From Planctomycetota bacterium (lineage in GTDB: Bacteria; Planctomycetota; UBA8108; SXIK01): a stretch of 64,000 nt of DNA. Below, one piece after another: positions 1,178-14,844 of this stretch; position 1 is the stretch's first letter; each line of letters starts with the position of its first letter. Under the pieces are notes generated by a model. The model was not told where the DNA came from and ran no database searches. It worked only from the letters and a program-made list of their open reading frames with translations. The stretch covers positions 5,888,001-5,952,000 of the forward strand of contig OZ244999.1 in the NCBI GenBank assembly GCA_965223265.1, read 5' to 3'. The position numbers and the translations under genes are program-made.

Positions 1178-1325
1178 TCAGCGACCCGCAGCGTTCCGCC
1201 GATCGCGGCACCGATACTGAATCGCCTCCGCAACGAGGATGGCAGAGACGTGTTCCTCGCCCGCCAGGTCGGCGATGGTGCGGGTGACCTTGAGGGCTCG
1301 GTGTACGCATACGCGCTGGGAGCGC
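1178..1325 (-). pseudogene. comM: 3' remnant of ComM/YifB Mg-chelatase-like ATPase
   Basis: (SAYAY)/HRALKVTRTIADLAGEEHVSAILVAEAIQYR matches the ComM C-terminal motif SARAYHRILKVARTIADL...EAIQYR. There is a 1-nt frameshift near 1305 and the rest of the gene is absent. Confidence 0.8.
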
Positions 1326-1953
1326 GCGGGCGAAGCCGGAGCGCTTGGTTGATGCCGCCGCGCTCTGGAGAAGCCCTCGCTCCAGTGCGCCGTCGCAGGG
1401 TATTCAGTCTGGATGGAAGGGTCTGTTCCCGCAGGGACGAGAGACAAGACGGACACTGGCTTAAGCCAGCAGAGAAGCCCGGAGTTTTTCCGCTCTCCCG
1501 AAAACACAACAGTTGTCTTACCCCGCGAAGATTGCGCGGTTACAAGTTCGGGACAGGTCTGACGTCCGTTCTTCGAGAAGACGCTGCCGCTCTATTCCTA
1601 TCTCTCCCACAGCGTTAGAGATTCGGATATTCTCTCTCCGCTCTCTCGATCACTTCGCTCGTCTATCCCCACGAACGACCTCGAGATAATCGAAGAAATC
1701 CAGGTGACATTCCTCACTAGGTGAGGATGGATCACTTCGAGGGAGACAAGTTTTTCAGATCAACGAGCTTGGAGATTCTGATTTGCAATCTCGTCCTGAC
1801 AGGTTGGGAGGGAAGGTCGATCGGGGCCAGGTGAATCTCGCCGGACTGGAGACGTCGTCCACTTTCGGTATAAACGACGTCTTTGGTAATCCCCGGCGGC
1901 GCTCCATCTGAAACCCATGTTTCACGGAGGCAGTTCGGATCCAGGAGCGCGCC

Positions 1954-2562
1954 CTATGTCAGGAGCCGCCGGATCCGCCGCCTTAGGTAAGGCAGAACCT
2001 CGCTTTCAAACCAAGGGTTGTTCTTGAGCCAAATGTTGTTCCGAGGGCTAGGGTGAGGCAGTGGGATGCGGGCGGGTCTGTACTCCTTCCACGAACGCAC
2101 CGTTTCCGTAAGCGTCTGTTCTCGTCGCCCGAGATGCCAATCAGTGGCGTACTGCCCAATAACGAGCGTTACCTTCACTGAGGGCAAGCGCTCGAGTACA
2201 GACTCTCTCCATGCCTCAGCGCACTCCGGCCGTGGGGCCAGGTCTCCGGATTTCCCAGTGCCGGGGTAGCAGAACCCCATCGGCAGGATCGCGATTTTCC
2301 TGGCGTCATAGAACGTGGCCTTCGATACCCCCATCCACTCACGCAAGCGATCGCCGCTCGGATCAGCGAAGGGCACCCCGGATTCATGCACCCGGCGACC
2401 TGGGGCTTGACCGGCAATCAGTACCGGAGCTTCGGAATGCACCTGGAAGATGGGGCGTACTCCATCCTCCAGGTGCTCTTCGCAGAGGCGGCATGCACGA
2501 ATGTCGCGCAGAAGTTGCGTCAGGCGCTGGTTCGCAGCTCGTGATGGCTTGCTGTGTTTCAC
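1954..2562 (-). CDS. Uracil-DNA glycosylase superfamily protein
   Basis: CRLC N-terminus, GQAPG motif A, PF.DPSG.RL, LPHPSPRN motif B. Confidence 0.9.
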   Translation of the reverse strand: MKHSKPSRAANQRLTQLLRDIRACRLCEEHLEDGVRPIFQVHSEAPVLIAGQAPGRRVHESGVPFADPSGDRLREWMGVSKATFYDARKIAILPMGFCYPGTGKSGDLAPRPECAEAWRESVLERLPSVKVTLVIGQYATDWHLGRREQTLTETVRSWKEYRPARIPLPHPSPRNNIWLKNNPWFESEVLPYLRRRIRRLLT

Positions 2563-2597: not shown

Positions 2598-2948
2598 CTA
2601 CGCCTGGTAGAACTTTTCGGAAACTACCCGCCCGTCATTCCAGCGTCGAACGAGGACCTCTTTCCAGACAATTGGCTCGCCGCCTGCGCCGGTCATGTCG
2701 AAGGTGAACTCGCTCATTGTGAGGTCATCACCCACGCTGTTGCCGTGGAGCGTGGCGCCGTTGAAACTCTTGAGAGACGCGAAGAAGCCACTGAGGTGAT
2801 TGTGCTGAGCCTGCCGACTCTCGCGACGAGAGCCATCGGGTTCCTCGAACACACACTGATCTGCATAAAATTTCTCGAGGGCCGCAAGGTTTTCGCCTTT
2901 GGCAGTCAACTCATCCAACGCAACAACTCTTTGCTCGAGATCACTCAT
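2598..2948 (-). CDS. SnoaL/NTF2-like protein
   Basis: 116 aa; ALEKFYAD...EP pattern and C-terminal RRWNDGRVVSEKFY. Confidence 0.8.
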   Translation of the reverse strand: MSDLEQRVVALDELTAKGENLAALEKFYADQCVFEEPDGSRRESRQAQHNHLSGFFASLKSFNGATLHGNSVGDDLTMSEFTFDMTGAGGEPIVWKEVLVRRWNDGRVVSEKFYQA

Positions 2949-3041
2949 GTGGGGTTCCTCTCGTATAGGTTGGGTGTTACTAAAACATCCGCTGCTTCGT
3001 TCCGGATTGACGGAGCCGGGGATCGCGAGCGCAATTCTCGC

Positions 3042-3416
3042 TCAAGGGACTTCTACGATCTCTGGCTTTAGGCTCTCGGTAAAGCGCAGCACCTCGCCTT
3101 TCTCCCGTTCTGGGACTTCGAAGGTCTCCAGAGCTGCGGTTAGGTGGTCGACCGCGCGCCTCCAGTCTTCTTCGGCGATGCGCATCCCAATATGCGCGGT
3201 CTTCATGTCACGGCCCGTGTAAACCATCGGTCCGCCCGACGATGCGCACAGAAAGTCGACCAACAATTGCTGCTCGCGCGCGATCCCGTCCGCGCCCCGG
3301 TGATCGTAGGAACGGCGCAGTTTGTCGTCATCTTTGATCCGCACCATCAACGCGTCTGTGACGGCAGCAATGGCGTCATACCCGCCCAGGCGTTCGTAAA
3401 GAGACGTGTTCGACAT
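3042..3416 (-). CDS. Group I truncated (2/2) hemoglobin, cytoplasmic
   Basis: SLYERLGG, GGPMVYTGRDMKTAH (proximal His); GGAGG RBS before ATG 3416. Confidence 0.9.
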   Translation of the reverse strand: MSNTSLYERLGGYDAIAAVTDALMVRIKDDDKLRRSYDHRGADGIAREQQLLVDFLCASSGGPMVYTGRDMKTAHIGMRIAEEDWRRAVDHLTAALETFEVPEREKGEVLRFTESLKPEIVEVP

Positions 3417-3483
3417 GCTGGTATCCTCCCTAAGACGGCTGGTCCGGCCAGATCGAGATGATCGCACCATGGCTCATCCCGAA

Positions 3484-5130
3484 TCACTTGAGTGGGTAAT
3501 CGGTCAACACGTAGTCGTGGCCGACGGAATGGCATCCAAAGCAGCGCGCCACGCCGTTACTGCTAGCACGTGGTGCGCTGGAATCAGTGGTGCTAGTCAC
3601 TTCGTACCAAAACCAGCCCTTGCCACCGTCGCTTTCGTCCTGCGTCTTCAGCATGACGGCCCAGCCTTCGAGCTTGCCGCTAGCATCGAACATCTCCTTC
3701 ACAGCTCCTGCACCCTTGGGGAGCGCTTTCCTGCCAGCCTTGAGCGCGTCGTTCATCCTTGCGTTCATGAAAACCTTCACCGGGCGCCCGAACTTGGAGT
3801 GCGGACCGCTCGAAGGGTGCATTTTCGATTCACTGGCCGGGAAGTTCTTGTACTTCCCATCGACAAGGAATTGGAACAGCGGCTCTTTCCCGGTCGGAAC
3901 GCCTCCGACTGAGCCAACCGGCGTTTCTGAACTGGGTTGTCTCGCCATCTCGCCAGCCATCCTGAGCCGGCGCATGGCTTCTTTACACTCCTTGCATGTA
4001 TTCCTGTCGTGCGACTTAGCTCCTGGTTTGGCTGCTCTCAGGACAGGGTAGTACTGAGTGAATACAAAGTCCTCCGCCGCAGCCTTCTCGTGACACTGGT
4101 TGCAGGCGAGGCGCGACTGCACTTTCGTTGTATTCGCCAGGGGATACTCATGGCCGAAACTAAAGTAGGCCCAATTGCCGGGCTGGTCGGGGAAGTGCTC
4201 CTTGCTCTTGATGGTGACCTCCAGGCCGATGAAGTCCCCCATGAAGTAGCCCGCGCCGCTAACGGCCTGCTTGCTGCCGACGCTGATCAGTTCTTTGATC
4301 AGAGTCGTCCCTTCGCGAAACTCACCTGTCTTCGTATAGTGTGCCCACGAACCACGGTCTATATAGACAGCGTGAAACTCCGGGAACGGTGCTGCCCCGG
4401 CGTTCATATCGTGTGGGGTGAGGGGCGTCCCGACGTAGACCCATTCGCGATAGCCCTCAGGGCGAACAAGCTGCTTGTTCCCGTCGAACTTCGGCCCTTT
4501 CCATTCGGTAGAGGCCGCCTTCGAGCCCTTTGCGGCTCGTAGAACGGGGTAGTACTGTGTGAATACGAAGTCGTCAGACGCCGAGCCCGCATGGCACGCG
4601 TTGCATGCTTGCGACGGGAATCGCTTGGCCGTGTCGGCCAGCGGATACTCATGGCCGAAGCTGAAGTAGGCCCAATTGCCGGGCTCGTCGGGGAAGCGCT
4701 CCTTGCTCTTGACGGCAGCCTCGAGCCCGATGAAATCGCCCATGAAGTAACCTGCTCCGCTAGTGGCCGCCTTACTGCCGACGCTGGTCAGCTCCTTCAC
4801 GAGGACTGTACCCTCGCGAAACTCACCCGTGTTCTTGTAGTGCTCCCAGGACCCCGGGTCGATGTAGACGCTGTGGAACTCCGGGAACGGAGCGTTACCG
4901 TCGTTCATATCGTTGGGAGTGTGCGGCGTGCCCACGTACACCCAGGAACGATAGTCCCTCGGACGGAAGAGTTCCCCTGCCGTGGTAAACTTTCCCGGGA
5001 AACCTACACCCTGGGCGAGAGCCGCCGTGTTTTGTCTGTGATCGACGGTCAGAGCGGCGACGACCAGGGCCACGGCGGCACAGGTCGACAGCACCCACAG
5101 CGATAGACGAATTGTTCTTCGATGGAACAT
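3484..5130 (-). CDS. Exported multi-domain cytochrome P460-family protein (3 CxxCH)
   Basis: Signal/TM N-terminus. Two repeats of YR.WVYVGTP.TP.DMN.G.APFPEFH.VYID...GEFREGT...KEL.SVG...GYFMGDFIGLE...CNxCH...DFVFTQYYPVLR. A third P460-like domain has AVKEM, GWFWYE and CFGCH. AGGAG RBS. Confidence 0.9.
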   Translation of the reverse strand: MFHRRTIRLSLWVLSTCAAVALVVAALTVDHRQNTAALAQGVGFPGKFTTAGELFRPRDYRSWVYVGTPHTPNDMNDGNAPFPEFHSVYIDPGSWEHYKNTGEFREGTVLVKELTSVGSKAATSGAGYFMGDFIGLEAAVKSKERFPDEPGNWAYFSFGHEYPLADTAKRFPSQACNACHAGSASDDFVFTQYYPVLRAAKGSKAASTEWKGPKFDGNKQLVRPEGYREWVYVGTPLTPHDMNAGAAPFPEFHAVYIDRGSWAHYTKTGEFREGTTLIKELISVGSKQAVSGAGYFMGDFIGLEVTIKSKEHFPDQPGNWAYFSFGHEYPLANTTKVQSRLACNQCHEKAAAEDFVFTQYYPVLRAAKPGAKSHDRNTCKECKEAMRRLRMAGEMARQPSSETPVGSVGGVPTGKEPLFQFLVDGKYKNFPASESKMHPSSGPHSKFGRPVKVFMNARMNDALKAGRKALPKGAGAVKEMFDASGKLEGWAVMLKTQDESDGGKGWFWYEVTSTTDSSAPRASSNGVARCFGCHSVGHDYVLTDYPLK

Positions 5131-5281
5131 CGCGACGTTCTCCTGGAAGCGGTTCCTTGTCCCGACTGTTGTCCCGGGAGTCGGTAGTTGCGCTGCTCTT
5201 CTTGGGCCCAGAACTGACGAAGCGCTCAGCACCTGCCAACTGCGGATTCAGCCGAGATACGTGCAAAAACTGCCGCGCGAG

Positions 5282-5803
5282 CTACGTACGCTCAACTATG
5301 TCTGGCTTGAGCGTGCCGATGATCGAGAGCAGTTCTCGCTTTTCTTTGGCGGGCACTTCGAACCTGTCCAGAGTATCCACCAGGTGGTTCACAACGACGT
5401 TGAAGTCTGCTTCCGTGATTCCCAGCCCTCCGTGAACGGTTTTGGCAGGTCTGCTGAGGATCTTGCACGGCCCGCCCGTGACGTTGCAGACCAGATTGAT
5501 GTTTTTCTGGATGAACGACTGACGGGTGTCCGTACCCATCCCCTTGAAGAAGGGTCCGACCTGGGGATCGATGAAGAGCTTCGCGGCGAAGTCGTTCACA
5601 ACCGCCGAGACGGCGTCGTAGCCGCCGAGTCGCTCATAGAGCGTGCGGCCGGTCGCGGACGCGCTTGGCTTGGCCGCAGGTGGTACATCCTGGACCGCGG
5701 ATTTGGCGAGGCGCGAGTGGCTCGAGCAGCCTAGCGCCGCCAGAACGACGGCTATGGCTCCGAGGGGCAGCACGAGGCAGCGAGAACGAGTGATCCGGGA
5801 CAT
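5282..5803 (-). CDS. Group I truncated hemoglobin with lipoprotein signal peptide
   Basis: Lipobox-like VLAALG-C, then TLYERLGG...TGGPC...KTVH (proximal His). Confidence 0.85.
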   Translation of the reverse strand: MSRITRSRCLVLPLGAIAVVLAALGCSSHSRLAKSAVQDVPPAAKPSASATGRTLYERLGGYDAVSAVVNDFAAKLFIDPQVGPFFKGMGTDTRQSFIQKNINLVCNVTGGPCKILSRPAKTVHGGLGITEADFNVVVNHLVDTLDRFEVPAKEKRELLSIIGTLKPDIVERT

Positions 5804-5942
5804 GGAATTGGTTTCCTTTCTGAGGTTTGACGTCGCGAGCTGGGGTTGATCCAGATGCCGAGCGGATTGCCTTCACTACCTATAGCTGCGAGAATGGTGG
5901 TCGGATTTGGACAACCACTTGCAGGGTTTCTTGCGGATTTCT

Positions 5943-6551
5943 ATGCGGGATCGTCAATCGAACCAGGTGACAGTTCTTTTGGAAGCGATTCGCCGTGGCG
6001 AGTCGCCGGCAGCAGCTGAACTCCTGCCACTCGTCTACGACGAGTTGCGTAGACTTGCAGAGCGTGAAATGGCGAAGGAGCGCCGAGGGCACACGCTTCA
6101 GCCGACGGCTCTCGTCCATGAGGCCTATTTGCGCCTCGTAGGCGGCGCGGAAGTGCGCTGGGAGGGACGCGTGCACTTTTTTCGTGCTGCGGCTCAAGCG
6201 ATGCGACGGATTCTGGTCGATTCTGCTCGCCGACGGGCGACCCTGAAACACGGGGGCGCGGCCCGGGTACCGCTGTCGGAAGCCAGTGCCGTTGCCGATG
6301 AACCGCGCCCAGCCGAGCTGCTAGCACTCGACGAGTCCCTCGACCGACTGGAACAGCGAGACCCGAGGAAGGCGGATGTTGTGAAGCTGCGCTACTTTGC
6401 AGGGCTGTCCATAGAAGACACGGGGGCAGCCCTGGGCGTGACTCCCCGGACCGTCACCCGTGATTGGACCGCGGCCAAAGCATGGCTATTTCGTGATATC
6501 ACAGGAGATCACGAGCAGGCACACAAAGGGTCCCCGACTAGTGGACGCTGA
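5943..6551 (+). CDS. ECF sigma factor (planctomycete kinase-associated type)
   Basis: LLPLVYDELRRLA..HTLQPTALVHEAYLRL; region 4 with RDW..AKAWL. Confidence 0.93.
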   Translation: MRDRQSNQVTVLLEAIRRGESPAAAELLPLVYDELRRLAEREMAKERRGHTLQPTALVHEAYLRLVGGAEVRWEGRVHFFRAAAQAMRRILVDSARRRATLKHGGAARVPLSEASAVADEPRPAELLALDESLDRLEQRDPRKADVVKLRYFAGLSIEDTGAALGVTPRTVTRDWTAAKAWLFRDITGDHEQAHKGSPTSGR

Positions 6552-9180
6552 TCGCTGGGAACGTGTCTGGTCCGTCTTCCACGCTGCACTGGAACGAGTC
6601 GAGCGGGATCGAGCCGGATTCGTCGAAGAAGAGTGCGGCACTGACAAGAGTCTGCGCATCGAAGTTTTCGCGCTGCTACGCTCGCATGAGAGCGCAAAAA
6701 CGTTCCTCGAAGACCCACTGAATCCACGCCCGGCTTCACCGCAGGCGATGATTGGTCAGCTCGTTGATCGGTACCGACTACGCTCGGTGATCGGTTCCGG
6801 GGGGATGGGCACAGTCTTCCTCGCCGATCAGGAGGAGCCGATCAAACGCGCCGTAGCATTAAAGGTCGTAAAGCTCGGAATGGATACAGCGGAGGTCGTC
6901 GCGCGATTCGAATTGGAGCGTCAGAAGCTGGCAGAGCTTAACCATCCTAACGTCGCTCTAGTGTTCGACGCTGGTGCAACAGAGAACGGTCGACCGTACT
7001 TTGTGATGGAGTACATTCCGGGGATTCCAATCACGGATTATTGCGACGCGAACAGCTTGGGGATCGGCGATAGGATAGAGCTCTTCCTCCCCGTCTGCGA
7101 GGCCCTTGAGCACGCACACCGACGGGGGACTCTTCATCGTGACATCAAGCCGTCGAACGTTCTTGTTGAGGTCGTCGATACTCGAGCGGTCCCGAAAGTA
7201 ATTGATTTTGGCCTCGCGAAAGTCGTCGACGGTCGGACGCGCGTTGCAGCTCCTGATACCGGCTACGGGAGGATGATCGGAACGCCTGAGTTCATGAGTC
7301 CGGAACAGGCATTGGGGGTCTCCAACATAGACGGAAGGACTGACGTCTACTCTCTCGGCATGCTTCTCTACGTGCTACTCGTTGGTAGCCACCCCCTTGT
7401 CAAAGAGCTGCAGAAGGAGTTCCCGGAGGATCTGCGTCGCAAGATTCGGGATTTCGACACTCCACGGCCGAGTGCTCACCTCAAGCAACTTTGTGAGGAC
7501 AGTATCGGAATTGCTGAACGTCGAGCGACGAACGTTCAGTCGCTCGACCAGCAGATCCGTGGTGACCTTGATAACATCGTCATGAAGGCGACGGCCAAGG
7601 AAAGGAACCATCGGTACGGATCGGCATCGGAATTCGCAGCGGACCTGAAACGGTACGCGAACTCAGAACCAGTTCTCGCGGTCCGCAGAGAAAAACGACC
7701 GGCGAGGCTGGCGGTCATCGTGGCTGTCGCTGTACTTGCCGTCCTCGTTGGTGGAGTTGCTGTTGCCATCTTCAAGTCGTGGTCGAGCGAAAGAGTTGCT
7801 CTGGCGGTACTTCCCTTCGCCACCGTCGGAGGAGATTCACGGCAAGATTACTTCAGTGACGGACTCACCACAGAGATCATCTATCGCCTGGGGAGAGTCG
7901 CCCCCGAAGATCTTGTGGTCATCGGTCATACAACGATGCTGCGGTACAAAAACAGCGAGAAATCGACCGACGAAATAAGCAAGGAGTTGAAAGTCGACTA
8001 TCTACTTGAAGGTAGCGTGAAATATGAAGGTGACCGTCTCTGGATCAATGCTCAACTCATCCGAACAAGCGATCAGACTCACTTGTGGGCCGAGAGTTTC
8101 GAGACAACGACCGCTGATGTCATTACGACGCAGCTCAAGCTTGCCCTCAATGTCGCACGGAACCTCGCTGTCGAGGTGCTACCGAAACGAAGTCGGATTG
8201 ATAAGTCTGCCGTCGTCGATCCACTGGCATACAAGGCGCATCTCAATGCGCGCCACTTTCGATCCATGGTCTCCGAGAACGGGCTTCGGAAGGCCATCGA
8301 ACACTTTCAGATCGCACTCGATCATGATTCGAGTTTCGCAGACGCATACGCCGGAATGGCTGCCTGCTACTGCCTGCTTTCGGGTCACGGCCTCGAGGTC
8401 GATCAGCCAAGCGCCTTAATGCCGAAGGTGAAAGACATGGCAGAAGCTGCTCTTGCCTTGGACGATGAACTTTCGGAGGCGCATGGAGCGCTTGGCATGT
8501 CCAAGCTAAAGTACGAATGGGACTGGGAAGGGGCGCGAACGCGGTTCCAAAGGGCAATCGAGTTGGATCCGAACAACCCCTTGTCTCGCATCTGGTATTC
8601 CTTCTACCTGTCCTCCCACGGGCGGCATGACGAAGCCATCGCCCAAGTCGAAACGGCCAGAGAGCTTGATCCGTTTTCAAAGGTCTCCAACGTCAACCTC
8701 GCCTGGCAGTACTACATGGCACGGCGGTACGAGAAAGCGCTCGAAGAGTTCAATCATAGCCTGGAGCTGTTTCCGGAGTTCTGGGTCGCCCTCTGGGGGC
8801 GTGGCCTCGTATATGCCCAACGCGGTCTCAGCAAGGAGGCTGTTGCCGACCTCAAGGGTGCGGTTGAGCGATCCCGAAACGACCAATCAGCTCTCGGCGG
8901 GTTGGGCTTGGTTTTCGCTAAATTCGGAGAGCGAGAAGAGGCTGAAAGAGTTGTCGAGTCGCTGACAGAACTGTCGCAGAACACGCATGTTCCACCGACG
9001 AGCGTTGCTGCGATCTATGGCGCTCTCGGCGATATCGATGAGGCGTTCCAATGGCTCGAGAAGGCTTACAGGATTCGCTCCAGGTCGATGGTCTGGCTCA
9101 GAGTCGGCCACGAGTTCGACCCCTTTCGTGGTGACCCTCGGTATCAAGACTTATTGCGGCGCATGAGACTGAATGACTAG
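6541..9180 (+). CDS. Ser/Thr protein kinase with TM helix, TolB-like domain and TPR repeats
   Basis: GSGGMG, VALK, HRDIKPSN, DFG, GTPEFMSPEQ; AVLPF..DYFSDGLT; TPRs. Overlaps the sigma-factor stop. Confidence 0.93.
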   Translation: MDADRWERVWSVFHAALERVERDRAGFVEEECGTDKSLRIEVFALLRSHESAKTFLEDPLNPRPASPQAMIGQLVDRYRLRSVIGSGGMGTVFLADQEEPIKRAVALKVVKLGMDTAEVVARFELERQKLAELNHPNVALVFDAGATENGRPYFVMEYIPGIPITDYCDANSLGIGDRIELFLPVCEALEHAHRRGTLHRDIKPSNVLVEVVDTRAVPKVIDFGLAKVVDGRTRVAAPDTGYGRMIGTPEFMSPEQALGVSNIDGRTDVYSLGMLLYVLLVGSHPLVKELQKEFPEDLRRKIRDFDTPRPSAHLKQLCEDSIGIAERRATNVQSLDQQIRGDLDNIVMKATAKERNHRYGSASEFAADLKRYANSEPVLAVRREKRPARLAVIVAVAVLAVLVGGVAVAIFKSWSSERVALAVLPFATVGGDSRQDYFSDGLTTEIIYRLGRVAPEDLVVIGHTTMLRYKNSEKSTDEISKELKVDYLLEGSVKYEGDRLWINAQLIRTSDQTHLWAESFETTTADVITTQLKLALNVARNLAVEVLPKRSRIDKSAVVDPLAYKAHLNARHFRSMVSENGLRKAIEHFQIALDHDSSFADAYAGMAACYCLLSGHGLEVDQPSALMPKVKDMAEAALALDDELSEAHGALGMSKLKYEWDWEGARTRFQRAIELDPNNPLSRIWYSFYLSSHGRHDEAIAQVETARELDPFSKVSNVNLAWQYYMARRYEKALEEFNHSLELFPEFWVALWGRGLVYAQRGLSKEAVADLKGAVERSRNDQSALGGLGLVFAKFGEREEAERVVESLTELSQNTHVPPTSVAAIYGALGDIDEAFQWLEKAYRIRSRSMVWLRVGHEFDPFRGDPRYQDLLRRMRLND

Positions 9181-9870: not shown

Positions 9871-12800
9871 ATGTTGCGATGCGGCATTCTCCGGCGCTGG
9901 GGCTTGGTTGTTGGGATTCTGCTCGGCGGTCTCGTCGGCCGACCGGTGGTGGGAGACGAGGTCACGTTCTTCGACTTCGGCAGTGAGTGGAAGTACCTCC
10001 CCGGCCTCACTGAGGCGTCGGAGCCCGACCCCACCGCATGGCGCGAGCCGGACTTTGACGACTCCGCCTGGGCGAGCGGCCGCGCTCCGTTCGGCTACGG
10101 CCGCGGGGGACCGTGGGGTACCGATCTCTCCGAGCTCGACCCGCCGATGTCCGGGAACTATTCCTCGCTCTTTCTTCGCAGCCGATTCGATCTCGCGAAT
10201 CTCGAGCGGCTCATCGAGCTTCACTTCGAAGTCACCTATGACGACGGCTTCATCCTTTGGGTCAACGGGGTCGAGGTGGCGCGGGCGCGCATCCTCGAGA
10301 AGCCCGGGGTCTTCGTCCCGTACGACGCCATCGCTGCATCCGGAACTCCTGGGACCGTCGACGTCCACCTGACGTCCCCCGACGTCCCGATCGCGGCCGA
10401 AGGGAACGTCATGTGCATTCAGGTGTTCAACCGCGGCCTCAGGAACAACGATCTCAAACTGGATGCGCGCGTCTTCGATCCCCTCCACCCGGACCTCGAG
10501 CCTCCGGCGATCGCGCACGTCATCCCACTACCCGGGACGACGGTGCGGAGGCTCTCGCAGGTCGAAGTCTCCTTCGACGAGCCGGTCGAGGGAGTCGACG
10601 CGAGCGATCTCGATATCAACGGCAGAGCGGCCCGCGAACTGACGGAGGTCGACGCCAGCCGCTACCAGTTTACCTTTACCGAACCGCCGGTCGGCACTGT
10701 CCGCTTCGAGTGGATCTCAAACCACTCCATCACCGATCGCGCGGTGGATCGAAATCCGTTCGGCGGCGGAAACTGGTCCTACGACTTCGATCCCAGCGCT
10801 CCCGTCCCGTCGATCTCGATCAGCGAATTCGTCGCCGCAAGCGATGGCTCGCTGGTCGACGAAGAGGAGAGCGAGGAAGACTGGATCGAAATCTCGAACG
10901 ACGGCAGCGAGGCGGTCGCTCTCGGCGGCTGGACTCTGACCGACGACGCCACTGAACCGGACAAATGGCTCTTCCCCGACGTCGTTCTCGCGCCGCAGGA
11001 GCGCCTCATCGTCTTCGCTTCGGGGAAAGATCGGCGCGACCCCGAGGCGGAGCTCCACACGAACTTCAAGCTCGACGCCGAAGGCGAGTACCTGGGCATC
11101 TATCCCGCGGAAATCCCGCGCGTCGCGATCGAAGAGTTCACTCCGAAGTACCCGCACCAGCGGAGCGGTGTTGCCTACGGCAGACAAGATGGCGAGATCG
11201 GCTACCTCGATGCGCTAACGCCCGGCGAGACGAACGATGCCGCGCGGCGCTACTCAAACTTCGCCACCCCACCAAGTTTTAGTGCCCGGCGCGGTTACTA
11301 CGAGCAGCCGTTTCTCCTAGAGCTCTGGGCGCGAACGCCGGGCGCGTCGATCTATTACACGCTCGACGGTGCGACCCCATCGCCCGATACGGCACTGCTC
11401 TACCGCGGCCCGATCGAGGTGCACGGCGAGTCCGAACTCGGTATGGTCATGGTGCGTGCTGCCGCCTTCCGCGAGGATCTTCTCCCCTCGGCGGTCGTGA
11501 CCCACTCCTACTTGTTCCCACGGGACGTACTCCGTCAGCCAGACGATCCGCAGGGGTTCCCGGACCGCTGGGGAAACCAGCCCGCAGACTACGAGCTCGA
11601 CGCGGAGATCATCGACCCGAACCGTGAGATGGCGATCGAAGGTCTCAGGTCGATCCCGAGCATCTCCATCGTCACCGACATGGAACACCTTTTCGGCTTC
11701 GGTACCGGGATCTATACCCGGCCCTCACTCAGTGGTCCCCTGTGGGAACGGCCGACGTCGGCCGAGCTCCTCTTCGCCGACGGCCGCAGGGGATTCCAGA
11801 TCGACTGTGGCATCCGCACGCAGGGGGGAAGCAGCACGAACGATTGGAAGTCCCGCAAGGTGTCGCTTCGTCTTCTCTTCAAGGAGAAATACGGCGCCAC
11901 CAAACTGCGTTATCCGCTCTACGAGGGCTCGACGGTGACGCGCTTCGACACGCTCGTCCTGGACGCCGGTCTGAACTACACCCTCAACCATCCGGGTCAC
12001 TCCGAACGCATTCGAGCGCAGAACGTGCGCGACCAGTTCGTCGCCGACCTGCAGAATGAGGCGGGCGGCTTCGCACCACGCGGCAAGTTTGTGCATGTGT
12101 TTCTGAACGGCGCTCACTGGGGAGTGTACTACATTCACGAACGCCCCGATGCCTCCTACGCGGCCGAACACTTCGGCGGCTCGAAGGACGACTACGACGC
12201 CATGCGTCACCGTCCGACGACGGTGGTGGATGGGGACAACCTCGCGTATCTCGAGCTGACGCGACTCCGCGACCTGGATGACCCAGTGCAGTATGCGGCC
12301 CTGGAGGCACTTCTCGACATCCAAAACTTCGCGGACTACATACTGATCAACAACTACGTCGGCAATACGGATTGGGCGCACCAGAACTGGTACGCCACCA
12401 GGCGTCGCGATCCGCCGGGTCCGTTTCGCTTTCACAGTTGGGATGCGGAGATCGTGCTCCTGAGCCCGACCGAATTTGTCCTCAACAAAAACGACGGCGG
12501 GGGTCCCACCGGCATCTTTACATTCGTGAAGCGCAACCCGGAGTTTCGCGTCCTCTTCGGCGACCGGGTCCACAAGCACTTCTTTGAGGGTGGTATGCTC
12601 TTTGTGAACCCCGACGCGCCGGAGTGGAATCCGGATGAGCCGACCAGCAACATGCCTGCGATGCACTACATGAGGCGCATCGAAGAGATCTATAGCGCGA
12701 TTCTCCTCGAATACGCGCGCTGGGGAGACAATTGGCGGATGCAGTACACGCGCGACGACTGGCTCAATGAACTCGACTGGCTGCTGGTGAACTACTTTCC

Positions 12801-14844
12801 CGTGCGCTCGGCGCGCGTTCTCGACCAGTTTCGCGGCCAGAACCTCTATCCGAGCGTCGAGGCGCCGGTCTTGAGTCGACACGGGGGCGCGATCGAACCG
12901 GGCTTCGAGCTCACCATACAGCTACCGGCGGGCTCGACCGGCACCATGTACTACACGACCGACGGTACCGACCCGCGAGAGGTCGGCGGCGAGGTCTCGC
13001 CCGCGGCGAGCGCGTATACCGGCGCGCTCATCCTCAGTGAAGAGACCGTCGTCAAAGCGCGGAACCTCGGTCTCGATGCGAACGAGGAGATGGGATGGAG
13101 TGCGCTGAGTGAGGCTCGGTTCACGGTGCCGGCCGCTTCTCCGCGGCAGCTCGCCATCACCGAAATCATGTTCAACCCTCGCGGCGGCGGTGACTACGAG
13201 TTCATCGAGATCTCGAATCCAGCGGCCGCTCCGGTCCGCCTCGGGGGCATATCGTTCACTGATGGAATTGGGTTCACCTTCGACGAGGGCGCTTCGATCG
13301 CACCAGGTGGGTCCATCGTCCTGACGAGAAATCCGCAGGCGTTCCGCGATCGCTACCCCGGGGTGAAACCGCTGGGAGCTTACACGGGGAAACTCGCCAA
13401 CGAGGGAGAGCGCGTCGAACTCTCAGGGGCGGATGGAGAGTCGATTTTCGTCGTCAGGTTTCGTGACTCGGGGTTGTGGCCGATCGCCGCGGATGGCTTT
13501 GGGTTTTCACTCGTCCTCGAAGATGTCGCGGCGCCGCCAGAGGACCCACTGTCGTGGCGCGCCAGTGCGCTTGTCGACGGTTCGCCGGGCGCCGCGGACC
13601 CAGCGGCCGAGGTCGGCGGCATTCTGATCAACGAGGTGGCGACAGATGGCGGCGGTGCGGAGCCTGGAGTCGAACTGTTCAATTTCGGCGCCGCAGCCGT
13701 CGACCTGAGCGGCTGGTGGCTGAGCGGAAATCGAGGCGATCTGGAAAGCTTGAAAGCCTTTCGCATGCCGGCGGGAACGAGGATTGAGGCCGGGGGCTAC
13801 GCGGTCGTTCGCGGCGGCGCCGAGTCGTTACCCGTGAGCGCAGGCGGTGGAACGTTATTTCTTACGGCCTTCGATAGCACCGACGAGTTCACCGGCTTCA
13901 TCACGAGTGCCGATTACGGCATCGCAGAGCTCGCGGGTTCGTTTGGTCTCCACCTCACGAGTAACACACTCGATTTCACTCCGCTGCGCACGCCGACGCT
14001 GGGGACGGCGAATGACATTCCCATGGCGGCCGCGGTGGCGATCAACGAAGTTCACTACCACCCGCGGGGAAACGGCACCGAGTTCATCGAACTCTATAAC
14101 CCAAGCGGGGACGCGGTCGACGTTGGCGGCTGGAAGCTGAGCGGCGTCTCCGGCTCCGAGGCGGGGGAGGACTACGTGATCCCGTCCGGCTCCATCATCG
14201 CCCCGCACGGGTTTCTTCTCGCCGTTCCCATGGCACCCGAGCTCTTCCGAGATTTTTATCTGGTTCCGGACGCGGCGCCGATCGTCGGTCCGTACGCCGG
14301 CGCGCTCGATAACGGCGGCGAGAGGCTTGCGCTCTGGATGCCGTCGGCGCGCATCGCAGGATCTTTCGTGCGGGTGGATATGGTTCGCTTCGACGACCGC
14401 ACCCCATGGCCGATCGCGGCGGATGGCGACGGTTATTCCCTCGAGCGAGTTTTGGCGGCTGAGTACGGCAACGAAGTCGAGAACTGGGAGGCGTCCGAGC
14501 TTGAGGGCGGCACTCCTGGTTTCCTCAACAGCGTGACGCCGATCTCCGGGGAAACTCCGAGCGGTCGGCAGGTGCCGGGGGACTTCAATCAGGATGCGCG
14601 GCTGAACATCTCCGATGCGATCGCGCTCCTCCGCGAGCTCTTCTCTGGCGCGATGCCGTTCGTTCCCTGCGGCGGCAGCCTCGAGGCCGAGGGAGCTCGC
14701 GCGCTCCTCGACCAGGACGGCGATCAGGAAGTCGCGCTCTCCGATGCCCTCTTCCTCCTGAGTCACCTCTTCGAGGGCGGGGCGCCTCCGGCACTCGGCA
14801 GGGACTGCACGCCGATCGTCGGGTGCCCTGAGATCTGTCCGTGA
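9871..14844 (+). CDS. Secreted lamin-tail-domain / CotH kinase / Fn3-associated protein with dockerin-like tail
   Basis: Signal peptide; repeated I(S/N/T)E...(D/E)(W/F)IE LTD motifs; IYYTLDG; CotH-like GNTDW..NW and WDAE; C-terminal GDFNQDARLNISDAI. Confidence 0.88.
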   Translation: MLRCGILRRWGLVVGILLGGLVGRPVVGDEVTFFDFGSEWKYLPGLTEASEPDPTAWREPDFDDSAWASGRAPFGYGRGGPWGTDLSELDPPMSGNYSSLFLRSRFDLANLERLIELHFEVTYDDGFILWVNGVEVARARILEKPGVFVPYDAIAASGTPGTVDVHLTSPDVPIAAEGNVMCIQVFNRGLRNNDLKLDARVFDPLHPDLEPPAIAHVIPLPGTTVRRLSQVEVSFDEPVEGVDASDLDINGRAARELTEVDASRYQFTFTEPPVGTVRFEWISNHSITDRAVDRNPFGGGNWSYDFDPSAPVPSISISEFVAASDGSLVDEEESEEDWIEISNDGSEAVALGGWTLTDDATEPDKWLFPDVVLAPQERLIVFASGKDRRDPEAELHTNFKLDAEGEYLGIYPAEIPRVAIEEFTPKYPHQRSGVAYGRQDGEIGYLDALTPGETNDAARRYSNFATPPSFSARRGYYEQPFLLELWARTPGASIYYTLDGATPSPDTALLYRGPIEVHGESELGMVMVRAAAFREDLLPSAVVTHSYLFPRDVLRQPDDPQGFPDRWGNQPADYELDAEIIDPNREMAIEGLRSIPSISIVTDMEHLFGFGTGIYTRPSLSGPLWERPTSAELLFADGRRGFQIDCGIRTQGGSSTNDWKSRKVSLRLLFKEKYGATKLRYPLYEGSTVTRFDTLVLDAGLNYTLNHPGHSERIRAQNVRDQFVADLQNEAGGFAPRGKFVHVFLNGAHWGVYYIHERPDASYAAEHFGGSKDDYDAMRHRPTTVVDGDNLAYLELTRLRDLDDPVQYAALEALLDIQNFADYILINNYVGNTDWAHQNWYATRRRDPPGPFRFHSWDAEIVLLSPTEFVLNKNDGGGPTGIFTFVKRNPEFRVLFGDRVHKHFFEGGMLFVNPDAPEWNPDEPTSNMPAMHYMRRIEEIYSAILLEYARWGDNWRMQYTRDDWLNELDWLLVNYFPVRSARVLDQFRGQNLYPSVEAPVLSRHGGAIEPGFELTIQLPAGSTGTMYYTTDGTDPREVGGEVSPAASAYTGALILSEETVVKARNLGLDANEEMGWSALSEARFTVPAASPRQLAITEIMFNPRGGGDYEFIEISNPAAAPVRLGGISFTDGIGFTFDEGASIAPGGSIVLTRNPQAFRDRYPGVKPLGAYTGKLANEGERVELSGADGESIFVVRFRDSGLWPIAADGFGFSLVLEDVAAPPEDPLSWRASALVDGSPGAADPAAEVGGILINEVATDGGGAEPGVELFNFGAAAVDLSGWWLSGNRGDLESLKAFRMPAGTRIEAGGYAVVRGGAESLPVSAGGGTLFLTAFDSTDEFTGFITSADYGIAELAGSFGLHLTSNTLDFTPLRTPTLGTANDIPMAAAVAINEVHYHPRGNGTEFIELYNPSGDAVDVGGWKLSGVSGSEAGEDYVIPSGSIIAPHGFLLAVPMAPELFRDFYLVPDAAPIVGPYAGALDNGGERLALWMPSARIAGSFVRVDMVRFDDRTPWPIAADGDGYSLERVLAAEYGNEVENWEASELEGGTPGFLNSVTPISGETPSGRQVPGDFNQDARLNISDAIALLRELFSGAMPFVPCGGSLEAEGARALLDQDGDQEVALSDALFLLSHLFEGGAPPALGRDCTPIVGCPEICP

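Follow-up and report, generated by a model that had tools for sequence, protein, structure and literature searches.

A conserved and apparently undescribed A-A-B architecture of cytochrome P460 encoded by a planctomycete gene

The characterised cytochromes P460 are single-domain proteins, and a gene that joins active-type and glutamate-less P460 domains in one chain raises the question of what such a protein might be built for. The respective gene (P0001) is located on the minus strand at positions 3484..5130 of a 64,000-nucleotide stretch from a Planctomycetota bacterium (GenBank assembly GCA_965223265.1, contig OZ244999.1, positions 5,888,001 to 5,952,000), which is referred to as the window. 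According to its open reading frame (ORF) and a scan with the PF16694 profile, it encodes a multi-domain cytochrome P460 of 548 amino acids with the architecture A-A-B, comprising two Glu-bearing domains of type A (D1 and D2) and a Glu-less domain of type B (D3). The enzyme family itself is known, but the A-A-B architecture is real, conserved and apparently undescribed. No description of a multi-domain P460 was found in the titles and abstracts searched, a coverage that leaves out most subscription journals, and the words 'fusion', 'fused', 'domain' and 'heterodimer' are absent from the main text of a 2025 review (PMC11928373). A passage of that review leaves open why organisms pair P460 with gas-binding relatives and which roles its 'halfway house' proteins play. 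The presence of an A domain and a Glu-less B domain in one chain makes such a coupling testable with one gene.

The ATG of the P460 reading frame (5130..3484, minus strand) is preceded by an AGGAG ribosome-binding site. In a profile search of the host genome (9.18 Mb), PF16694 matched three stretches of P0001 with 99, 97 and 32 bits, all above the cut-off of 27, and no P460 match besides these three domains was detected. Such a domain scan had been suggested as a check by the original prediction, which was made from the window sequence alone, and D3 with its VKEM (residue 477) and CFGCH (530) motifs is among the matches. The motifs APF (80 and 247), VKEL (111) or IKEL (278), IGLE (134 and 301) and CxxCH (176 and 343) are likewise present in D1 and D2 where they had been claimed, as is PEFH (83 and 250). 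The two A domains form a direct repeat with a spacing of 501 nt, as predicted, but their description as near-identical was overstated: identity amounts to 79% at the nucleotide level over 300 nt, to 72.6% at the protein level (114 of 157 residues) and to 52% at third codon positions. Because of this residue and third-position identity, the duplication of D1 and D2 is regarded as old. Residues 1-39 (5014..5130) form a putative signal peptide or anchor according to a hydropathy scan, with predicted Sec export and A-L-A as a possible cleavage site; this is the only hydrophobic segment of P0001, so that no internal hydrophobic leader is present. Positions 3000-5900 are covered without any difference or gap by contigs that may themselves be the source of this DNA and that come from two public runs belonging to the same study; independent full-length homologs of P0001 number 35. 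A misassembly, previously called unlikely, is excluded by these homologs and contigs. No NCBIfam family was assigned to P0001, to the flanking globins or to the neighbouring SnoaL-like protein, and a scan for promoters and terminators yielded 0 promoter-like sites and 5 terminator-like sites, the latter corresponding to chance level.

The gene had been treated as a singleton oddity; instead, it belongs to a widespread A-B family to which an extra A domain appears to have been added more than once. Among the best 120 of 556 homologs found (301-959 aa; 7998 candidates scored), 36 proteins are A-A-B, 81 A-B, 2 A-A and 1 a truncated A-A-B. A set of 80 genome loci, collected with A-specific patterns that include the His and in which His conservation is therefore given by construction, contains 38 A-B, 3 A-A-B and 7 A genes alone, along with a few broken or mixed cases. 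In a further 12 of these loci, all from Flavobacteriaceae, an A-B gene is followed by a separate A gene that carries a leader of its own; Winogradskyella maritima and Leptobacterium flavescens are cultured carriers of this arrangement. Additionally, 80 metagenome loci found with B patterns comprise 32 A-B, 15 A-B plus A, 5 complete A-A-B and 10 B-only cases, several of the latter being cut by contig ends, besides others. Apparent 'split' A and B genes were discarded as broken A-B genes or sequence errors, since they showed an in-frame stop and no leader (L052), a 1.5-kb interruption (L042) or overlapping frames (L092 and L093). Carriers of A-B or A-A-B belong to about ten phyla, but a match to the P460 gene was absent from all 40 relatives of the host, which suggests that the spread is patchy and probably horizontal.

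Two further gene types were noticed at these loci. A second Glu-less P460 partner with the motifs HLGSW, VKEL and WFVMVK lies beside an A gene in 13 of the 80 genome loci and is fused to it in 1 (L056:6520-7080, L060-L062, L065, L066, L071, L074, L077, L079 and L080; several phyla). Such neighbourhoods and the fusion (L066/P0244) represent a parallel pairing of an active with a divergent P460 that is independent of type B. In the loci L129, L130 and L132, a free B gene with its own leader is divergently oriented from a pair of other P460 genes.

The domains D1 (residues 47-203; 4522..4992) and D2 (residues 214-370; 4021..4491) were delimited by alignment and modelling, and both align to the cytochromes P460 of Nitrosomonas europaea and Nitrosomonas sp. 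AL212. D1 contains the capping F82, H86, K112, E137 and the haem-binding residues C176, C179 and H180, to which F249, H253, K279, E304, C343, C346 and H347 correspond in D2. The F, H, K, E and CxxCH positions are retained in D2 of all 36 full-length proteins and, with the exception of Asp for Glu in P0034, also in D1. Both domains consequently possess the cross-link-position Lys, the distal carboxylate (E137/E304) and the cap (F82/F249) that are listed as activity features in Table 2 of the review (PMC11928373). All equivalents of Lys70, Phe41, Glu96/97 and CxxCH of the N. europaea enzyme (PDB 2je2/2je3, 8gar) are found in D1 and D2, but that protein is a single-domain homodimer from an ammonia oxidiser and carries Arg44 where P0001 has His. 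The replacement of this Arg in the PEFH motif is present as predicted; it is, however, not unusual, as AL212 P460 (PDB 6amg; A131E variant 6e0x/6e17) has the same PEFH along with the Phe cap and the Lys, at 50-54% identity to D1 and D2. The AL212 protein is itself single-domain, in contrast to the two A domains and the very distant B domain of P0001. AlphaFold models were calculated for the three domains with an alignment (A2) of the window protein and 118 of 119 homologs and for D2-D3 with an alignment (A5) of 128 rows. Their best structural matches were AL212 P460 variants, with A131E giving a Z-score of 19.0 and a root mean square deviation of 1.7 Å over 158 residues for D1 and 22.5 and 1.8 Å over 158 residues for D2. 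Since the PEFH His is shared with AL212 and Glu occupies the distal position, D1 and D2 resemble a natural counterpart of the active A131E variant, which is reported to reach about half of the N. europaea activity (PMC6457333). AL212 P460 with its PEFH His is described as cross-linked (PMC11928373). D1 and D2 likely oxidise hydroxylamine (NH2OH), presumably with Lys-haem cross-links at K112 and K279.

The third domain (residues 411-548; 3487..3900) is marked in alignments by H438, H444, V451, K478, A491, a short beta-hairpin and C530, C533 and H534. It matches PF16694 with 31.5 bits and retains CxxCH and the Lys at the cross-link position. A profile of B domains (alignment A3; window and 56 of 57 locus B domains) was compared with one of A domains (A4; two window domains and 83 of 91 locus A domains), yielding an HHalign probability of 71%, an E-value of 3.6e-5 and 20% identity. 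In this alignment K478 corresponds to K279 and A491 to E304, B lacks the 12-residue insert of the A beta3-beta4 hairpin, and the spacing from the Lys to the base position is 13 residues in B versus 25 in A. Of 176 B domains, which were taken from proteins as well as from loci and include some sequences present in both sets, 176 conserve K478, 175 A491, 175 H444, 172 H438 and 174 E510. In 120 short B proteins that form a separate, independent sample, Lys is found in 120, Ala (118) or Ser (2) at the Glu position, H444 in 117 and E510 in 120. The Atlas places B among P460-family clusters; no significant match to PDB sequences was obtained with the B profile (best P460-family E-value 0.55), and the P460 rows in the structure comparisons of both models align to the A domains.

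Type B can be assigned neither to the active cytochromes P460 nor to the cytochromes c'-beta, because the carboxylate is missing, with Ala491 at the Glu96/Asp102 position, yet the Lys is present. The Ala is shared with wild-type AL212 P460. Cytochromes c'-beta (McCP-beta 6hih, TtCP-beta 7ead, NeCP-beta 7s5o) belong to the same fold family and have no distal carboxylate and a short loop, as is presumed for D3, but they carry Phe, Met or another residue in place of the Lys. Judged by its residues, B is therefore a 'halfway house' P460 type with conserved histidines, and the accessory third domain proposed originally is supported in the sense of a Glu-less, Lys-bearing P460-fold domain. Whether its haem would be cross-linked is uncertain, since an ungapped extension of the profile alignment puts the invariant Val451 at the Arg44/His site and the Arg44Ala variant of N. 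europaea P460 is reported to purify cross-link deficient (PMC10411619). According to a passage in PMC6427953, the genes for P460 and c'-beta do not lie near each other in 14 organisms having both; here, the partner domain is fused.

The linker between D2 and D3 (residues 371-410; 3901..4020) contains, by model and alignment, a predicted helix and a His374-Asp-x3-Cys379-x-x-Cys382 motif (window 3985-4011, residues 374-382, with CKECK at 379) that had been overlooked. The motif occurs in 34 of the 120 homologs, His-Asp preceding CxxC every time; most A-B proteins have a Met-rich helix in its place. A fourth haem at CKECK was rejected because the fifth residue is variable (Q in 14, K in 12, M in 3, R in 2 and A, E and L in 1 each). 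In NrfA-type CxxCK haem sites the Lys after CxxC is conserved, which applies to only 12 of the 34 sequences here, and Pfam matches to c7 and MtrC were weak and below cut-off. The motif probably represents a disulfide or a metal site.

Several observations bear on the question of which domains pair. The linker between D1 and D2 (residues 204-213; 4492..4521) is ordered in the model, with a predicted local distance difference test score (pLDDT) of 94-96 (model blocks 161-180), and the spacing between the first and second haem motifs is 161-170 aa in 36 of 36 A-A-B proteins, a range of 9 aa. The distance from the second to the third motif is 170-199 aa in these proteins, and A-to-B spacing is 170-202 aa overall and varies by 30 aa in A-B proteins (172-202). 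The beta3-beta4 loop reaches the haem of the partner subunit in solved P460 dimers and is short in c'-beta, as stated in the review (PMC11928373). The hairpin residues V117, A122, S124, G127 and F129 are invariant in 241 of 241 A domains from all four A classes, and the A domains of A-B proteins keep the dimer hairpin as strictly as solo A domains. A chain contains one or two A domains: a search with the A profile (287-2000 aa) revealed the true A-A proteins P0058, P0068 and P0241 and no A-A-A protein among the best 120 long matches. P0243, an apparent read-through between two genes, and P0242, which is cut inside the second A, were not counted. Taken together, the sequences and the model indirectly favour intramolecular D1:D2 pairing over other domain contacts, and the covalent pseudo-dimer proposed originally is upheld to that extent by the linker, the natural A-A proteins and the lack of A-A-A, although the models do not single out this pair.

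The arrangement of two A domains with one B domain appears to have arisen repeatedly. A tree of 69 A domains selected from 248 (quick IQ-TREE, LG+G4) contains a branch with 98% Shimodaira-Hasegawa-like approximate likelihood ratio (SH-aLRT) support: on one side lie the two A copies of each of eight sampled A-A-B proteins of the P0014-P0036 group together with the Flavobacteriaceae pairs, on the other both copies of the window's group; support for most other branches is weak. In a FastTree of all 248 sequences, the nearest sequences to D1 in the window's group are other D1 domains and those to D2 other D2 domains. Because both groups contain both copies, the 98% branch suggests that the A domain was duplicated at least twice or that gene conversion homogenised the copies. 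In P0034, a divergent A is fused in front of A-B. The tree, the Flavobacteriaceae operons of A-B plus A and P0034 suggest several routes to a 2A:1B set. Given that A-B is more frequent than any other form, such a set is not obligatory.

The function that we favour, tentatively and at somewhat under an even chance, is that of a D1:D2 pseudo-dimer oxidising NH2OH together with a tethered, non-catalytic D3 that binds nitric oxide (NO) or NH2OH, serving nitrogen-oxide detoxification in a non-nitrifier. The protein would be exported by Sec, and haem would be attached at its three CxxCH motifs by the host Ccm system, for which CcmE and two cytochrome c assembly proteins of Ccm-type maturation are encoded in the genome. 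Lys-haem cross-links would form at K112 and K279, and the long beta3-beta4 hairpin of each A domain would contact the haem of the other, like in the solved P460 dimers. Glu137 and Glu304 would serve as proton relay in the conversion of NH2OH via {FeNO}6 to N2O, and the electrons would pass to an external acceptor that is not encoded by the adjacent genes. D3, without a base like wild-type AL212 and with a c'-beta-like short hairpin, would bind or buffer NO or NH2OH beside the catalytic pair, and the whole protein would protect the cell from nitrogen oxides that neighbours produce. The only other known NH2OH oxidase with a P460 haem is HAO, like P0001 a multihaem single chain, but of unrelated fold, with a Tyr cross-link and seven electron-transfer haems in contrast to the three P460-fold domains found here.

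A number of findings weigh against this reading. The near-invariant His444 and His438 of B would not obviously be needed in a passive binder. The commonest form is 1A:1B (81 of 120 proteins, 38 of 80 genome loci), so that 2A:1B is not required; free B genes with their own signal-like leader exist, and the loci L126, L127, L133 and L142 contain a B gene and no A gene within the stretch examined. The models do not say which domain pair is the dimer. A predicted template modelling score (pTM) of 0.77 was obtained for the three domains, where rough estimates are 0.62-0.65 with one domain free and 0.91 for full packing. The corresponding value for D2-D3 alone is 0.72, as compared with rough estimates of 0.52 for free domains and 0.88 for full packing, and in view of this packing signal B perhaps docks on A as well. 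The host genome, which is 92% complete, revealed no source of NH2OH or NO: AMO/pMMO was detected neither there nor in the genomes of 5 carriers, in a search that scored a methanotroph positive control, and NirK and NosZ were likewise not found in the host. In addition, an NO-dioxygenase role of the two globins that flank the gene is doubtful, since both lack the Tyr of the HbN 'FYVRV' segment, and 69 of the 80 genome loci lack such a globin, the other 11 including related genomes.

The conserved histidines could be accommodated if D3, or type B in general, were a second catalyst with a Lys-cross-linked haem and His444 (or His438) as distal base, perhaps releasing NO like HAO or serving as a peroxidase in the maturation of the A haems; this is unlikely, although it is the best placed of the rival explanations. 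In its favour are the conservation of K478, H444, H438 and E510, which is the same in free B, the Asp/His pair that HAO is reported to use (PMC10411619), and the free B genes with leaders (of 120 short B matches, a signal-like leader was recognised in 76 and no clear leader in 39, while the other 5 are fragments of fusions). On the other hand, Ala at the Glu position abolishes the activity of AL212 P460 according to PMC6457333, and Val451 stands where the Arg44Ala exchange impairs cross-linking in N. europaea P460 (PMC10411619).

Similarly improbable, and ranked second, is a built-in electron relay in which His444 would be the sixth iron ligand of D3 and electrons would be accepted from the A haems. 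The invariant His presumably lies in a loop over the distal side, some packing of D2 with D3 is indicated by the pTM, and no cytochrome c family match was present in the 69 of 151 neighbour ORFs that were scanned, so that no encoded redox partner is evident. However, the Lys is invariant, and solved Lys-cross-linked P460 haems at -340 to -428 mV would be poor acceptors (PMC11928373, section 6); the same section describes the characterised family members as ligand-binding haems with an open distal side. In view of these potentials of about -340 to -430 mV, NO or ligand binding would fit D3 better than electron transfer, which is less likely if the Lys cross-links, unless His444 is the sixth ligand.

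A third and rather remote alternative is that D2 and D3 form an A:B pseudo-heterodimer, corresponding to the ancestral A-B unit, and that D1 pairs with the D1 of another chain. The frequency of A-B, the pTM of the D2-D3 model and the second Glu-less partner type, which suggests recurrent hetero-pairing, speak for it; a complex prediction for D2 and D3 (score 0.01, mark 0.32) was used for neither side. Against it, the 12-residue hairpin insert through which the haem of the other subunit is contacted is missing from B, the A domains of A-B proteins keep this hairpin as strictly as solo A domains, and the A-B spacing is far more variable than the A-A spacing. Least probable of these four is an arrangement like beads on a string, in which the fusion merely co-exports uncoupled haem proteins and raises their dose: A, B, A-A, A-B, A-B plus A and A-A-B all occur, with a patchy distribution like that of a mobile stress cassette, but the A-B fusion is kept in about ten phyla and 2A:1B recurs by several routes. 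An assembly artefact or missed stop codons can practically be dismissed, as nothing was found in favour and the third-codon-position identity, the full-length homologs, the contigs without differences and the lack of an internal leader rule it out.

Beyond the window, it is conceivable but doubtful that P460 outside nitrifiers operates as a two-component system, consisting of a Glu-bearing catalytic dimer and, as its so far missing physiological partner, a type B haem (with Lys, an invariant distal His and no carboxylate) that takes electrons or NO or performs a new His-based oxidation, with 2A:1B sets being repeatedly fused into one chain. With a natural single-chain A:A pair, each active site of the dimer could be altered independently of the other, and proteins of this family, if active, would provide a path from hydroxylamine to N2O in non-nitrifiers that has so far been left out of account.

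The P460 gene lies in a same-strand run with gaps of 151, 70, 93 and 35 nt. Upstream, a truncated, group-1-like haemoglobin with a lipoprotein-like leader has Ala in place of the HbN distal Tyr, a residue with a role in O2 stabilisation (5282..5803, minus strand), and a second group-1-like truncated haemoglobin without leader follows 70 nt downstream of P460 (3042..3413, minus strand), 38-39% identical to the first by sequence. According to Pfam scans, a SnoaL-like protein (2598..2948, minus strand) and a uracil-DNA glycosylase (UDG) superfamily protein (1954..2562, minus strand) probably belong to the same operon; NO and hydroxylamine damage cytosine, which would fit the latter. Globin homologs occur in 11 of the 80 genome loci from 4 phyla, with about 0.3 expected at the density of the host genome, although those of the 11 that come from related genomes do not count independently. 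A further 7 occurrences were noted among the 80 metagenome loci. Homologs of the SnoaL-like protein and of the UDG family protein (51-59% identity) are each present in 5 of 80 genome loci. A third truncated-globin copy is located in the host at G000:C1:4.84 Mb. In the 69 of 151 called neighbour ORFs covered by the Pfam scan, the only common partners were AraC regulators and DUF6787, both in Flavobacteriaceae, where AraC genes lie upstream of A-B plus A operons (L010, L017, L019, L020, L023, L027, L029, L031) and DUF6787 is often found downstream (L017, L027, L031).

The HAO-like family PF13447 was not found in 5 carrier genomes, and the P460 gene thus shows no tie to HAO. Outside the window, the host encodes a 535-aa multihaem protein with a PF13447 match (G000:C1, about 5,730,600-5,732,200; L088:1198-2805, minus strand) and a weak match to the hydrazine dehydrogenase family NF052343 that is far below cut-off; the ORF directly upstream presumably represents the C-terminal part of a cytochrome b, which it resembles. 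Within the window, an ECF sigma factor (PF07638; 5907-6551, plus strand) and a Ser/Thr kinase with TPR repeats (6460-9180, plus strand), which we take to be a planctomycete-like pair, are divergent from the globin-P460 run. A short ORF at 1178-1507 (minus strand) that matches only the C-terminal part of PF13335 (Mg chelatase ChlI C-terminal) is probably a gene remnant, and positions 9871-14844 (plus strand) encode a 1657-aa protein with lamin-tail, CotH kinase and Fn3-associated domains.

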